A stretch of DNA of 64,000 nucleotides. It comes from Candidatus Latescibacterota bacterium. GTDB lineage: Bacteria > Latescibacterota > UBA2968 > GCA-2709665. A program made the translations under genes and the position numbers. The stretch lies in the NCBI GenBank assembly GCA_965219995.1, contig CBDCOX010000002.1, positions 3,904,001 through 3,968,000 on the forward strand, read 5' to 3'. A model generated the notes under the pieces. The model was not told where the DNA came from. It did no database searches and saw only the letters and a list, made by a program, of their open reading frames with translations. The first letter of the stretch is position 1, and every line of letters starts with the position of its first letter. Shown here one piece after another: positions 32,045 to 36,980 of this stretch.

Positions 32045-35000
32045 CTACGCAACAACTGCGGCGGCTTTTTCTTTTAGTGCGGGCAGCAGTTCGTCGGCCG
32101 CTCGTTCGAGGGCGGCGAGTGCCTCATTCACGTTCTCCAGGTCGCCTTTGCGCGCCATGGTTTCCAGCCGCAACGCCGCCTCCACGGTCGAGTTGGCAAG
32201 AAAGACGGCCGCCGAACCCTTCAGCGTATGGGCCGCGCGCCGCAGCAGCGTGGCATCGCCTTGATGGACCGCCCGTTTCATTTCCTTCAGGTGCCTGGCG
32301 TATTCGCTGACAAACAGCCCCGCCAGTTCGCCCAGGATCGCCTCGTTCCCGCCAACCTGTTCCAGGGCGCCATGCCAGTCGAGTGCGCCGTCAACGTCGG
32401 GGTCCTCCGGCGGTGCGCCGTCCGAAGAAACGTCGTTCTCCACGATATCGAAGAGGTCTCCCGCCCGGACCGGTTTTGGGAGATAGTCATCCATCCCCTC
32501 TTCCAGGCACCGCTCCCGGTCTCCCTGCATCACATGGGCCGTCATCGCCGCTATTCGAACGTGTTCCCCGGTCGACCGCTCCCGTTCTCTGATGATCCGG
32601 GTCGCCTCCAGCCCGTCCATCTCCGGCATCTGGATGTCCATCAGGACCAGGTCGAACGTCCCGTTCTCCAGCGCCGTAAGTACTTCCCTGCCGTTATTGA
32701 CGGCCGTAACCCGGTGGCCGCGCGGCTCAAGCAGGTCCACAATCACTTTCCGGTTGACCTGCCCGTCTTCGGCCAGCAGAACGCGACGCCTCATCGCGGC
32801 CGGTAACGGTTCCGGTAAAGCCCGGACGTCCAGGGTCTCTACAACACTCACCTCGAGAGCGGCCAGGGTGGCATCGAGCAGGTCTGATTGCTTGACAGGT
32901 TTCGTAAGACACTGTGTAAACTCCAGCGTGTCGCACCTCACCGCGTCGTGCGTTCTCCCCGCGGACGAAAGAATCAGTATCGGTACATCCTTCAATGCGG
33001 CATCTTCCCTTAGGCGCTCGGCCAGAGAGAACCCGTCCATATCCGGCATCACCGCATCGAGCAGAAACAGGTTGTACGGCAGACCCGCCTCGCCGGCCTT
33101 ACGTACCGTGTCCATCGCGGCCGGCCCCGAATCCGCCACGTCGATTTTCATACCCCATGTTCCCAGCATTTCCTCGAATATGAACCGGTTCGTGCGGTTG
33201 TTGTCCACCACCAGCGCGCGGAGTCCCACCAGAGTCTGGAGGTCGGCCGCAGACCGCTTCGCCGGCTGAGGCCGGGCCTCGAATTGCGCCGTGAAATAAA
33301 ACGTACTTCCTTTTTCGGGTTCGCTTTCCACCCACATCCGTCCGCCCATCATCGCGGCCAGCTGAGATGAAATCGCCAGACCGAGTCCCGTCCCGCCGAA
33401 CCGCCTGGAAGTCGACGAGTCCACCTGGCTGAAGGACTCGAAGATGAGCTTCTGATCGTCAGGCGCAATGCCAATGCCCGTATCCCGGACAAAAAACCTC
33501 AGACACACCCTTTCTTCGTCCCGGGAGTCCACCTGGACGTCGACCAGCACGTCGCCTTTCGTCGTGAACTTGACAGCGTTGTCCACCAGGTTGATGACGA
33601 TCTGCCGCAATCGCCCCGGGTCGCCCAGCAGCCGATCCGGAACATCGGGCGCAATATGGCATGCCAGTTCCAGCCCCTTCTGCGTTGCCTTGACCGCCAG
33701 GGTCTGCACGGTGTCTCCCAGCGTATCCCGGAGATCGAAGCCGATCGATTCCAGTTCCAGCCTGTCCACCTCGAGCTTGGAAAAGTCCAGAATGTCGTTC
33801 AGCAGCGCGAGCAACGCCTCGGACGACTGCCGGCTCAACTTGAGATACTCCCGCTGTTGCGGCGTCAGCTCCGTATTGCCAAGCAACTCCGTCATGCCCA
33901 TGATACCGTTCATTGGCGTGCGAATCTCGTGGCTCATGTTGGCCAGAAACTCGCTCTTTGCGCGATTCGCCTTTTCCGCTACGTCCTTCGCTGTCTGCAA
34001 CTCCGCTCCGGAACGTTCCAGGGCAACGGTGCTCTTCTTCAGCGCTTCGTTGGCTTCACGCTCGGCGGCTGCCGTATTCTCCAGCTGCCGGTTCTTTTCC
34101 TGAAGCTGTATTTCGGCGTGCTTGCGCAGTGTGATATCCCTCACCGTGCCGATCATATGTACGGACTGCCCCGCGCTGTCGCCGAAGACGCGCCCCTTGT
34201 TTCCCAGCCATCGTATCGTCCCGTCGGGCCATACAACCCGGTGCTCAACTTCAAAGCCCACCCGTTCCTTGATCGTGCGCCGCACCGCGCCGCGGACCAT
34301 TTCCCGGTCTTCCGGATGCACGAATCCGTAAAACGCCTCGCGCGTACCTCCGAATTCGTCCGGCTTGAGACCGAACAAAGGCGCCACCAGGTCCGACCAG
34401 ACCAGTTCTCCGGTAAGCAGATTCGAATCCCAACTCCCCATGTGGGCGGCTTCCATCGCCAGCTTGAGCCGGGCTTCGCTCTCCCGCAATGCCTGTTCCG
34501 AGCGCTTCCGTTCGGAATCCAGGTTGGCGAGCGACCGGGCGTACCACCAGATCAGGATATTCAGTGCGACGATCACCCCCAGAGAGAACAGCGACATACC
34601 CGACGCGAACCCCAATATCACTTCGCCGTGAGGCCAGAGCCAACCCAGCGCCAGCGGAATCAGGAAAGCGGCCGGCAGCAAACGTCGCGCCATGGACCCG
34701 CCGGCCGTCGAACTGACAATGGTGGTGGTTGGTTCGAGGTCGGGCCGGGAAAGAAACACGCCAATGCACAACAGGCCGAAGGCAAGCGTTGTGACGGCGC
34801 TCATCTGGAGGTCCCACGTCACTTCTCTGGGGGAGAGCGTCAGATAAAAGTGCCCGACCGCATAACCGCACGATACGATCGAGGCGGCAGACAGACACGT
34901 CTGTGCGGGCCAGGCATTTCCTCTGAACCGGAAATGCCAGAGAAGCAAGGCCAGGCCGATCAGGGCGAAGTTGCACGCTTCATTGCGCAACATATGCCCC

Positions 35001-35330: not shown

Positions 35331-36980
35331 CTATGGGAAGACGCCTCTCAGGAGCTTCGCCTGAGTCACGCGGTGAATGCCCTCTATCAGCGCCGCTGTA
35401 CGCATATCCAGCCCATCGCGCTCGGACCGGTGTATCGTCCGCCGGAACGCGTGGAGCAGTATCTGCCTGAGCCGCTCGTTGATTTCGTCGAGGGTCCACA
35501 TGTAATTCTGGGTGTCCTGCACCCACTCGAAATAGGAAACCGTAACCCCTCCGGCGTTTCCGAGCACGTCCGGAAGAATAAACACGTCCTTGTCTTTCAG
35601 GATTTCGTCGGCCTCCAGTGTGGTGGGGCCGTTGGCGCCTTCGGCCAGAATCCTGCATGAGATGTTCTCGGCATTGTCCACGGTGATCTGATTCTGCAGG
35701 GCCGCGGGTACAAGAATGTCGCACGGGATCTCAAGCAATTCCCGATTGCTCACGGCGTCGCCGCCGGTGTAACCTTCCAGAACCTGGTTTTCATCCGTAT
35801 GCCTCAGCAGCGAATCCACGGACAGACCATCTGGGTTGTAAATGCCGGTGGTCACGTCGCTCACGCCCACGAGCCTGACCCCGCAGGCGTTCAGAAACCG
35901 CGCGACATTGCTCCCCACGTTCCCGAACCCCTGGACGATGGCGGTCGCGTTGGTCAGGTCCATCCCGATATGTCTGGCCGCTTCCTCCACGAGATACACC
36001 AGCCCCCGTCCCGTCGCCTCGCGGCGTCCTTCGGAGCCGCCCAGCACCACCGGTTTGCCCGTTACGACCGCGGGCACTGTATGTCCCATCTGGTGGCTGT
36101 AGGTGTCCATCATCCACGCCATAACGTGTTCGTCCGTGCCCATGTCCGGCGCGGGGATGTCCTTTTGCGGTCCGATCACGTCGATGATCTCCGACGTATA
36201 ACGGCGTGTCAGGCGCTGCAGTTCGGTACGAGAGAGGACGGTGGGGTCAATCCGGACGCCCCCCTTGGCGCCGCCGAACGGGAGGTTCATCAAGGCGCAC
36301 TTCCAGGTCATCCACATGGCCAGGGCGGTTACCTCGCCCAGGTTCACGTCGTGATGGTATCGAACGCCGCCCTTGGTGGGCCCCATCGTCAAGAGATGCT
36401 GGATCCGGTAACCGGCAACCGTCTCCACGTATTCGTGTTCGTCCCGCCGGAACGGAAACGTGACGACGTGGGTGCGCTGGGGAAAAAGCAGCCGCTGCCG
36501 GATATTGTCATCCAGTTCCATCAGGTGGGCGGCCTTCAGAAATTGCTGCTGCGCCAACCGGAACATGGGCGATTCCCATTCGGCGTGCTGCGCCCGGCTG
36601 CGCTCCACGGCGTATCGAATCGACCGCACCAGCAACGCGCCGTTCATATTCGACTTGACGAGATAGTCCTGCGCGCCGGCTTCGACGGCCCGCGCCGCGA
36701 GTTTGATGTCCTGCAGACCGGACAGGATCACAACCGGCAGGTCCGGATATGGCGCGCGGACCCGGAAATACGTGTCCAGGTCCTCGCTGTCGGGCAGCAC
36801 GAGGTCCAGCAGCAACAGCTCATACCCGTACGCCGCAAGCCGGTTCAGCCCTTCCGCGAGCGTGCCCGCCGAATCCACCTCGAACTCCGGGCCCTCGGAT
36901 TTGGCAAGCAGTTCCCGAATCAGGCGGGTGTGAAGCGGATTGTCCTCAATCAGCAGCGTCTTCAGGCTTTTTCCTGGCAT
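35331..36980 (-). CDS. Response regulator receiver fused to Glu/Leu/Phe/Val (glutamate) dehydrogenase
   Basis: REC: IEDN, LLLDLVLPD, ILSG, DYLVK. GDH: KGGVRYH, MTWKCA..LPFGGAKGG, DIPAPD, TGKP, GFGNVG, EGANGP, NAGGVTVSYFEWVQ. Confidence 0.93.
   Translation of the reverse strand: MPGKSLKTLLIEDNPLHTRLIRELLAKSEGPEFEVDSAGTLAEGLNRLAAYGYELLLLDLVLPDSEDLDTYFRVRAPYPDLPVVILSGLQDIKLAARAVEAGAQDYLVKSNMNGALLVRSIRYAVERSRAQHAEWESPMFRLAQQQFLKAAHLMELDDNIRQRLLFPQRTHVVTFPFRRDEHEYVETVAGYRIQHLLTMGPTKGGVRYHHDVNLGEVTALAMWMTWKCALMNLPFGGAKGGVRIDPTVLSRTELQRLTRRYTSEIIDVIGPQKDIPAPDMGTDEHVMAWMMDTYSHQMGHTVPAVVTGKPVVLGGSEGRREATGRGLVYLVEEAARHIGMDLTNATAIVQGFGNVGSNVARFLNACGVRLVGVSDVTTGIYNPDGLSVDSLLRHTDENQVLEGYTGGDAVSNRELLEIPCDILVPAALQNQITVDNAENISCRILAEGANGPTTLEADEILKDKDVFILPDVLGNAGGVTVSYFEWVQDTQNYMWTLDEINERLRQILLHAFRRTIHRSERDGLDMRTAALIEGIHRVTQAKLLRGVFP

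Follow-up and report, generated by a model that had tools for sequence, protein, structure and literature searches.

A receiver–glutamate dehydrogenase fusion and its phosphorelay kinase in Candidatus Latescibacterota: a catalogued response regulator with predicted enzyme control, and relatives in which the enzyme is dead or absent

A stretch of 64,000 nucleotides from Candidatus Latescibacterota bacterium (assembly GCA_965219995.1, contig CBDCOX010000002.1, positions 3,904,001 to 3,968,000), referred to here as the window, carries a two-gene cassette in which a receiver domain (REC) is fused to a glutamate dehydrogenase (GDH) and is followed by an unorthodox hybrid histidine kinase. Judged from its sequence, REC-GDH is a real, catalogued enzyme-output response regulator with a dedicated relay, and control of its enzyme is predicted. 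Table 1 of the P2CS paper (2009) lists EC 1.4.1.3 as a "probable" two-component accessory enzyme (PMC2716373), which bears out the guess of an initial annotation of this DNA that domain censuses would list such a fusion, and Galperin (2018) mentioned REC fused to standard metabolic enzymes (PMC5847659). No experimental study of REC-GDH was found in the literature searched, subscription papers being outside its scope, and a fuller census mention may exist. The fusion itself is thus already catalogued, and what is new here is the existence of family members with a catalytically dead GDH or with no GDH at all. The parts of the cassette are as follows.

35331..36980, minus strand: REC-GDH fusion gene (P0001), from the translation of the open reading frame (ORF), 549 aa
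36642..36965, minus strand: receiver domain, residues 6–113 (PF00072), with the phospho-acceptor D59 at 36806–36804
36576..36641, minus strand: extended alpha5 helix, residues 114–135, leading into the first GDH helix (DSSP of the structure model)
35334..36575, minus strand: GDH, residues 136–549, with K203, K227, K239, D279, R319 and S482
32045..35314, minus strand: unorthodox hybrid kinase (P0002), from ORF translation (1089 aa) and Pfam domains
34490..35314, minus strand: N-terminal membrane sensor of the kinase, residues 1–275, with no Pfam match

The two genes are 16 bp apart (35330–35315), with the kinase gene downstream. The 549-aa product had been described as a full phospho-site joined to a dehydrogenase with the motifs KGGVRY, GGAKGG, APD and GFGNVG, and translation, Pfam and a motif check confirm this: PF00072 covers residues 9–116, PF02812 167–296 and PF00208 314–546, all above the curated cut-offs. 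The receiver contains E12-D13, D59 (in LLDL), S87, Y106 and K109; E12, D13, D59 and K109, and likewise T/S87 and Y/F106, are found in 121/121 aligned homologs, and the full phospho-site occurs in all 252 complete N-termini of fusion homologs. Further full-length fusions were collected by a profile search over 50%-identity representatives, giving 254 full-length fusion clusters in all, and the aromatic switch residue on beta5, Y/F106, is present in 243/243 catalytically intact and 11/11 dead ones. It has been reported that Y/F on beta5 marks terminal allosteric receivers (PMC9981736). The acidic pair, phospho-Asp, Thr/Ser, Lys and beta5 aromatic that characterize a phosphorylatable terminal receiver are all found in the window protein.

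The connection between the two halves was analyzed with an AlphaFold2 model built from 150 aligned sequences (predicted local distance difference test, pLDDT, 94.2; predicted template modelling score, pTM, 0.83), which replaced a first model from a shallow alignment that was poor in GDH domain I (pLDDT 70.8). In the model, DSSP assigns an alpha5 that runs on to residue 135, followed by an S137-P138 cap and the first GDH helix, so that no flexible linker is predicted between receiver and GDH. The distance from K109 to F147 is 38 residues in 254/254 full-length fusions from several phyla. Large hydrophobic residues stand in the helix at positions 117, 121, 123 and 125, and the next conserved one is only W135. 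In 14 loci of the genus, the ratio of nonsynonymous to synonymous substitution rates (dN/dS) is 0.03 for GDH domain I, the most constrained part of the cassette, 0.06 for residues 114–165, 0.094 for domain II, 0.115 for the receiver and 0.056–0.14 for the parts of the kinase, every part being under purifying selection.

The enzyme part is a PF02812 plus PF00208 fold in which glutamate-binding and catalytic residues are present; K203, K227, K239, D279, R319 and S482 are those which we take, from Clostridium symbiosum GDH (K89, K113, K125, D165, R205 and S380 in its numbering), to have these roles. It matches GDHs of Thermotoga, Thermus, Bacillus and plants, the best solved match being that of Thermotoga maritima (1b26, 52% identity), and it scores below the cut-offs of the NCBIfam GDH equivalogs (GdhB_Halo 494/620, GdhA_Arch 475/750 and PRK09414 265/536 bits). 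It has been reported that NAD-type GDHs carry Phe at P2, an acidic residue at P7 and a hydrophobic, non-Ser residue at P8 (PMC12364357). The window GDH has F352 (P2), D375 (P7) and V376 (P8) and probably prefers NAD; among the 243 intact fusions, F352 is found in 238, D375 in all 243, and V or A at 376 in 224. R260, D292 and R545 align with the leucine site described in Thermus (PMC9570180), one position being off by one in numbering, and these residues are common in this GDH group generally. The same clade also includes REC-less GDHs of 429–449 aa (P0342, P0344, P0371, P0385 and P0421), which may be ancestral or may have lost a receiver; the GDH tree needs 3 changes for them. Other GDHs have 100–260 extra N-terminal residues (P0136, P0137, P0151, P0152, P0169, P0219, P0226 and L217), one being joined to a cytidylyltransferase domain and the rest having no Pfam match there.

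The neighbouring protein had been described as a multi-transmembrane PAS-HisKA-HATPase-REC-REC-HPT kinase, and Pfam and hydrophobicity give the same architecture, with PAS_3 at 304–391, HisKA at 452–515, HATPase at 564–678, two REC domains, Hpt at 996–1076, and 5 hydrophobic segments in the first 300 residues (Kyte-Doolittle threshold 1.6). All of its phospho-sites are present, namely H462 (HisKA), D753 (REC1), D893 (REC2) and H1029 (HPt), and the HisKA His, HATPase, REC Asp and HPt His that characterize unorthodox hybrid kinases are found in one chain. Among cassette kinases, the His residues are kept in 21/21 where covered and both Asp residues in 22/22. The best NCBIfam matches are BarA (480/890 bits) and TorS (462/676.5), both below the cut-off, as is ArcB (357/838). 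Residues 1–275 match no named Pfam family, the best Atlas clusters of the sensor are unnamed, and MASE3 is reached only at 0.83; this unnamed membrane sensor is shared by cassette kinases in 50/168 genomes of the phylum.

In this genome, which is rated 98.6% complete, no second ordinary GDH was found by tblastn, PF00208 or PF05088 (large GDH). In this genome and in the other 14 of the genus (15/15), PF00208 matches REC-GDH and no other protein, so that a check proposed with the initial annotation leaves the fusion as the only GDH found in genome and genus. Glutamate synthase (GOGAT) and glutamine synthetase (GS) are both present. The kinase is the only PF01627 match in the genome, and in two Latescibacterota genera (2/2 and 5/5 genomes checked) the cassette is the only HPt relay found, which suggests that the cells keep it when most such signalling is gone. 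Among the 25 receiver matches of the genome, the fusion scores 178 bits against the cassette-family profile and the others at most 56.

The fusion is not confined to this assembly. The same fusion and gene order are found in 13 of the 20 closest loci (88–98% identity; record titles of the closest name Candidatus Latescibacterota or Gemmatimonadota), and a contig from an RNA library of a close strain (~96% identity) spans the REC-GDH junction; a chimera or misassembly was rejected on these grounds. Contigs from RNA libraries of related strains cover both genes in pieces, one of which bridges the intergenic gap, although a single transcript is not thereby proven. In a search with residues 1–200, a receiver together with the GDH dimerisation domain is present in every one of the best 120 of 2093 matches and the NAD domain in 119 of them; genera named among these 120 include Gimesia, Roseiconus, Leisingera, Amphritea and Pontibacterium. 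The fusion also occurs on Sinorhizobium and Ensifer plasmids (9/60 matching records) and in Halomonas, Zobellella and Roseibium, and thus spans Latescibacterota, Planctomycetota, rhizobia and Halomonas; cultured carriers are Sinorhizobium fredii NGR234 (plasmid pNGR234b), Ensifer adhaerens, Gimesia maris, Leisingera and Halomonas. The full fusion is present in 23/168 genomes of the window's phylum, and samples of 401 Pseudomonadota genomes and 401 genomes of one order, with only 3 candidates scored per genome, yielded a single live fusion, again with the kinase. Occurrence in 23/168 and 1/401 genomes is patchy, as that of a mobile cassette would be.

Linkage to the relay was assessed in 74 metagenome loci from a motif scan, 72 of which encode REC and GDH as one ORF. 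Within 1 kb of REC-GDH, 38/72 loci have a HisKA or HPt gene, and so does L115 if a frameshift is allowed for; of the remainder, 5 have no partner with ≥1.5 kb on both sides, 2 show a sensor start only and 26 are too short, so that a relay partner is adjacent in 39/44 informative loci. As 85% clusters (n = 40), all loci divide into 25 with a relay, 2 with a sensor start, 5 with none and 8 too short. L080, L082, L115 and L128 are frameshifted, either by sequencing error or as pseudogenes. The partner is always HisKA-HATPase-REC-REC-HPt, the same with HPt split off, or REC-HPt (L056); it may lie upstream, downstream or convergent, and in the split forms the solo HPt gene touches REC-GDH. The search for REC with ELFV_dehydrog and for its co-occurrence with this kinase, proposed at the outset, has therefore uncovered a widespread fusion with a relay partner of one subfamily usually adjacent. 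The kinases of the cassette group separately from 19 other unorthodox kinases of the phylum (3 label changes vs. 14.3 when shuffled), without forming one supported clade. Their HPts reach 102–152 bits leave-one-out in 24/25 cases against 29–110 bits for 15 controls, some of them truncated, and the distances between receivers go along with those between kinase cores (Mantel r 0.32, p 0.0005, n 22), a type of test that shared ancestry inflates. On three annotated rhizobial plasmids, the two-gene cassette stands in unrelated surroundings, as expected of a portable phosphorelay. On the Ensifer adhaerens plasmid pCTYH.Ch1_2 (L052, 1927–11275), the cassette follows genes for glutamate mutase, methylaspartate ammonia-lyase and fumarase; these neighbours of methylaspartate-pathway glutamate catabolism are one case, counted for a catabolic role of the enzyme. 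In S. fredii NXT3 (L051, 13796–16643), the kinase is annotated as two overlapping ORFs with the PAS part separate, and is apparently frameshifted.

The mechanism proposed for the window's genus, to which about an even chance is given, is that the phosphorelay sets the activity or assembly of a catabolic NAD-GDH via D59 and a rigid helix. The kinase would autophosphorylate H462 on whatever its swappable sensor detects, and the phosphate would pass through REC2 (D893) to HPt (H1029), from which its transfer to D59 of REC-GDH is very probable. Phosphorylation of D59 would move the beta4/beta5/alpha5 face, and since alpha5, a helix of fixed length, leads straight into the first GDH helix, which belongs to the assembly domain, its displacement would alter the activity or assembly of an NAD-preferring, glutamate-oxidising GDH. 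That phosphorylation controls GDH catalysis as such is rated slightly better than even, and a GDH that is off by default and on when phosphorylated is narrowly favoured. Such a fast switch would prevent a futile cycle in a cell that also has GS and GOGAT. Counted in favour are the relay partner kept next to REC-GDH in whatever arrangement, the two-gene cassette in unrelated plasmid surroundings, the separate grouping of cassette kinases with their HPt scores, the relation between receiver and kinase-core distances, the invariant phospho-site, beta5 aromatic and helix length, the sole GDH of a genus with GS and GOGAT, the strong constraint on GDH domain I and the NAD-type residues.

Several observations weigh against this mechanism. 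Hydrophobic heptads end at I125, which gives no indication of an LvrB-type coiled coil, and the signal would more likely travel through packing of the helix against the GDH assembly domain. REC-less GDHs of the same clade retain the EWDSPMFRLAQ stretch, which from E134 on thus belongs to the GDH, so that its conservation is no evidence of coupling and EWDSP was rejected as a REC-coupling motif. It has been reported that P7 alone does not predict GDH coenzyme use, exceptions being known (PMC3157743). In the leave-one-out comparison, truncation of some control HPts depresses the control scores. Unlike those of REC, GDH distances show no significant relation to kinase-core distances (r 0.15, p 0.10, n 22). 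The inputs of cassette kinases include dCache-HAMP-PAS, CHASE, CHASE-GAF-PAS, PAS only, MHYT, YfiR, CHASE8, beta-propeller and unnamed membrane domains, and rhizobial ones have only PAS_7 domains ahead of HisKA; with sensors this varied there is no common nitrogen or glutamate input, a common sensory input was rejected, and the "membrane signal" first proposed stands for the window kinase but not for the family. The claim that no DNA-binding regulator is present likewise stands for the operon, but the genome holds several elsewhere: for REC-LuxR and REC-AraC proteins, a REC-sigma54 activator and a solo REC, no kinase was found among the neighbouring ORFs scanned (23/32 long ORFs in eight loci). 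Other acceptors for the HPt are therefore possible, and the orphan DNA-binding regulators could take phosphate from it.

Also on this side are 11 of the 254 fusions, which lack at least one of K203, K227, K239 and D279 and retain the receiver (P0124, P0125, P0135, P0150, P0186, P0233, P0426, P0427, P0461, P0466 and P0470), a share that is overstated because two of the three protein searches used dead queries. All 11 keep E12, D13, D59, T87, Y106, K109 and the helix length. They show graded decay, the glutamate-binding lysines being gone as well in P0124, P0135, P0150, P0186 and P0233. Halomonas and Bisbaumannia account for the 15 members of one dead cluster, with dead fusions in Halomonas salifodinae and Bisbaumannia pacifica (WP_346060975.1, WP_146803861.1). 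Identity between P0124 and P0322 is 84% in REC, 79% in residues 114–165 and ~60% in the GDH domains, whereas live pairs show the opposite order. When the dead label is placed on a tree built from receiver and helix, it takes 7 changes, 5 of them forced by starred branches, so that catalytic residues were lost in at least five separate events; a single origin was rejected, since the GDH tree grouped six dead forms but with flagged long branches, and REC trees scatter them. The K239M lineage (L060/L101, L109) has lost the Schiff-base lysine and kept K203, K227, D279, R319, S482 and GxGxxG, and its domain I is under strong constraint, with a dN/dS of 0.048 (one informative pair). No kinase lies next to the K239M loci, whose genomes encode other GDHs and HPts; the two genomes with fusions of this lineage hold two further PF00208 matches each. 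The catalytically damaged fusions that keep phospho-site and helix length also include L060, L061 and L109.

The attached enzyme is missing altogether in two genera, g25 and g24 (cassette loci L062-L066 and L164-L183), in which a receiver of the same subfamily stands alone beside an orthologous membrane kinase. In g25, 29/31 genomes match the receiver alone and 28/31 the same membrane kinase; in 24/24 fetched loci, a receiver of 122–127 residues ends 1–2 bases ahead of the kinase start, an arrangement also seen in one g24 locus. The g25 dN/dS is 0.13 for the solo receiver and 0.11–0.17 for its kinase (23 loci), and this kinase is the only HPt in 5/5 g25 genomes checked. Kinase and solo receiver are thus kept under purifying selection, which implies that the relay is useful without GDH and is a further point against enzyme control. 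A split system, in which the solo REC would act with a family GDH encoded elsewhere, was not found: in the 5/5 genomes checked, the GDHs are of a different clade, the best matches being 40–46% identical. The solo receivers lie within the clade of fused ones, in a group (Shimodaira–Hasegawa-like approximate likelihood ratio test, SH-aLRT, 92) shared with K239M and several fully dead forms, which suggests a stepwise loss of GDH. Solo receivers with no kinase nearby were also seen, in L067 and L068. Across the cassette family, these sequences indicate, the enzyme is dispensable and the receiver is not, and phosphorylation-dependent enzyme activity cannot hold for every member.

Since kinase and receiver have a use of their own in the dead and enzyme-less forms, three rival readings stay alive; they do not exclude one another, and the circuit may do more than turn an enzyme on or off. 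According to the first, which is tentative and clearly less probable than enzyme control, the GDH fold is a sensor of glutamate, 2-oxoglutarate or NAD(H), whose domain closure sets the gain or loss of phosphate at D59, and the protein is a metabolite-gated sink or feedback node with the final output elsewhere. The K239M lineage, with its Schiff-base lysine lost, its substrate-binding residues kept and its domain I constrained (on that one pair), is consistent with this reading, as are the g25 solo receivers, which are retained beside the kinase as a plain sink would be, and the orphan REC-LuxR, REC-AraC, REC-sigma54 and solo REC proteins. It is countered by the four core catalytic residues being kept in 243/254 fusions and by the fusion being the only GDH found here; in addition, several dead forms have lost the glutamate-binding lysines, the K239M loci lack an adjacent kinase, and no conserved downstream regulator travels with the cassette.

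A two-way node, which joins this reading to enzyme control, is somewhat more doubtful still. In it, the rigid helix would couple phosphorylation to the GDH cleft, so that the relay would switch the enzyme and the ligand state would set the relay phosphate; evolution would repeatedly have kept the second half only, giving pseudoenzyme glutamate sensors (K239M), scaffolds (Halomonas-type) and in the end bare receivers (g25).

It is improbable that phosphorylation controls binding rather than turnover, with REC-GDH as a phospho-regulated subunit or adaptor whose partner is an ordinary GDH hexamer, GOGAT, a regulator or a protease. On this view the dead forms would be regulatory subunits like Thermus GdhA, and the solo receiver would keep the binding role. 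What the dead fusions preserve best is the receiver and the helix, along with much of the first GDH helices (P0124 vs. P0322), and the two K239M-lineage genomes with two further PF00208 matches each would offer partners; precedents are the catalytically inactive GdhA described in the Thermus heterohexamer (PMC9570180) and the B. subtilis GDH-GOGAT counter-enzyme complex deposited as 7mfm. In the window's genus, however, there is no second GDH to partner with, the g25 GDHs are of a different clade (40–44% identical), and no partner gene is conserved beside the cassette in the metagenome loci. Marginally less probable again is a passenger fusion, in which the receiver alone is the terminal sink or switch of the relay and a constitutive GDH, fused once, is lost where the host has another one. 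The REC tree implies at least 5 losses of GDH function, with graded decay among the dead forms and outright deletion in g24/g25, whose solo receivers nest in the fused clade, but a loose linker would be expected to vary in length and there are zero indels between K109 and F147 in 254/254 fusions, and residues 114–165, though partly GDH, are more constrained than the receiver (0.06 vs. 0.115).

Two further features flank the cassette.

37040..37069, minus strand: sigma70-like promoter candidate, TTGAC(T/A)-17 nt-TAAATAT, ~60 bp upstream of the REC-GDH ATG
31963..31984, minus strand: terminator-like hairpin plus T tract (terminator scan), not a conserved part of the cassette

The upstream box presumably functions as a promoter, as TTGAC and CTAAATAT are invariant in 14/14 aligned upstream regions of the genus with variable flanks; a consensus promoter scan did not pick it. 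An inverted repeat, CGATA-6 nt-TATCG (37025–37040), lies just past the -10 box and is found, among the aligned regions, only in the window and L001. The terminator placed after the kinase in the initial annotation exists as a hairpin, but the scan returned 6 sites of this kind where chance alone would give 7.6, and a hairpin lies within 120 bp of the kinase stop in 1/10 relatives examined (L012), so that a conserved terminator as part of the cassette is not supported. The hairpin may instead belong to the insertion of a helix-turn-helix (HTH) gene, because L012 also carries the downstream HTH gene. This gene (31570–31860, minus strand) is present in L012 and absent from most relatives shown; it and a second small Cro/C1-type HTH gene (26190–26522, minus strand) resemble antitoxins of toxin–antitoxin pairs. 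Upstream, a run conserved in the genus (37223–44960, minus strand) encodes an aldo-keto reductase, a Gfo/Idh/MocA oxidoreductase, oligopeptidase F, an amidohydrolase, a PhyH dioxygenase and an AMP-binding enzyme, and is set off from the cassette by the cassette's own promoter candidate.

Among known systems, the enzyme-output response regulators CheB and PleD/WspR/DgcR likewise join an N-terminal receiver with a full phospho-site to an enzyme, and REC-GDH shares with REC-thioredoxin reductase and REC-pyruvate phosphate dikinase the status of a fusion known only from censuses. REC-GDH differs from enzyme-output regulators in that its output is a central carbon/nitrogen enzyme, the cell's only GDH here, that it adjoins a dedicated four-step relay with swappable sensors, and that dead and enzyme-less forms exist. 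The closest solved receivers by sequence include that of the dual-sensor kinase 6oap (best, E 1e-11) and those of REC-GGDEF proteins (DgcR-type 6zxm). In LvrB, it has been reported that alpha5 extends as a helix transmitting the phosphorylation signal (PMC13269768), and the REC-GDH model has a similar continuous alpha5 extension. The REC-GDH helix is, by comparison, shorter and charged and lacks hydrophobic heptads after I125, and it enters a hexamer-type dehydrogenase rather than a dimerisation and histidine phosphotransfer (DHp) or GGDEF dimer. BarA, TorS and ArcB share the HisKA-HATPase-REC-HPt relay with the window kinase, which differs from them in its two receivers, its unnamed membrane sensor and the lack of a cognate DNA-binding regulator in the operon. 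The small hexameric GDHs (Thermotoga, Thermus GdhA/GdhB, Bacillus RocG/GudB) are 44–52% identical to the enzyme part, with TM-scores of ~0.85–0.97 over the solved chains, and their leucine-site residues are retained; they are controlled by ligands, an inactive subunit or GOGAT binding and, unlike REC-GDH, none has a receiver.

Phosphorelay control of the glutamate/2-oxoglutarate node is a catalogued idea for which the literature searched holds no experiment, and the mechanism is readily testable, since GDH can be followed in a simple NADH assay, BeF3- stands in for phosphorylation and cultured strains carry the cassette. A phospho-switchable GDH would, if true, be a useful engineering part. 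The natural series from live through K239M and fully dead to enzyme-less forms is what would be unexpected to a specialist, and it supplies ready controls for deciding between phosphate that switches the enzyme and an enzyme that gates the phosphate. A two-way node, if true, would be a trigger-enzyme role at the level of the phosphorelay.

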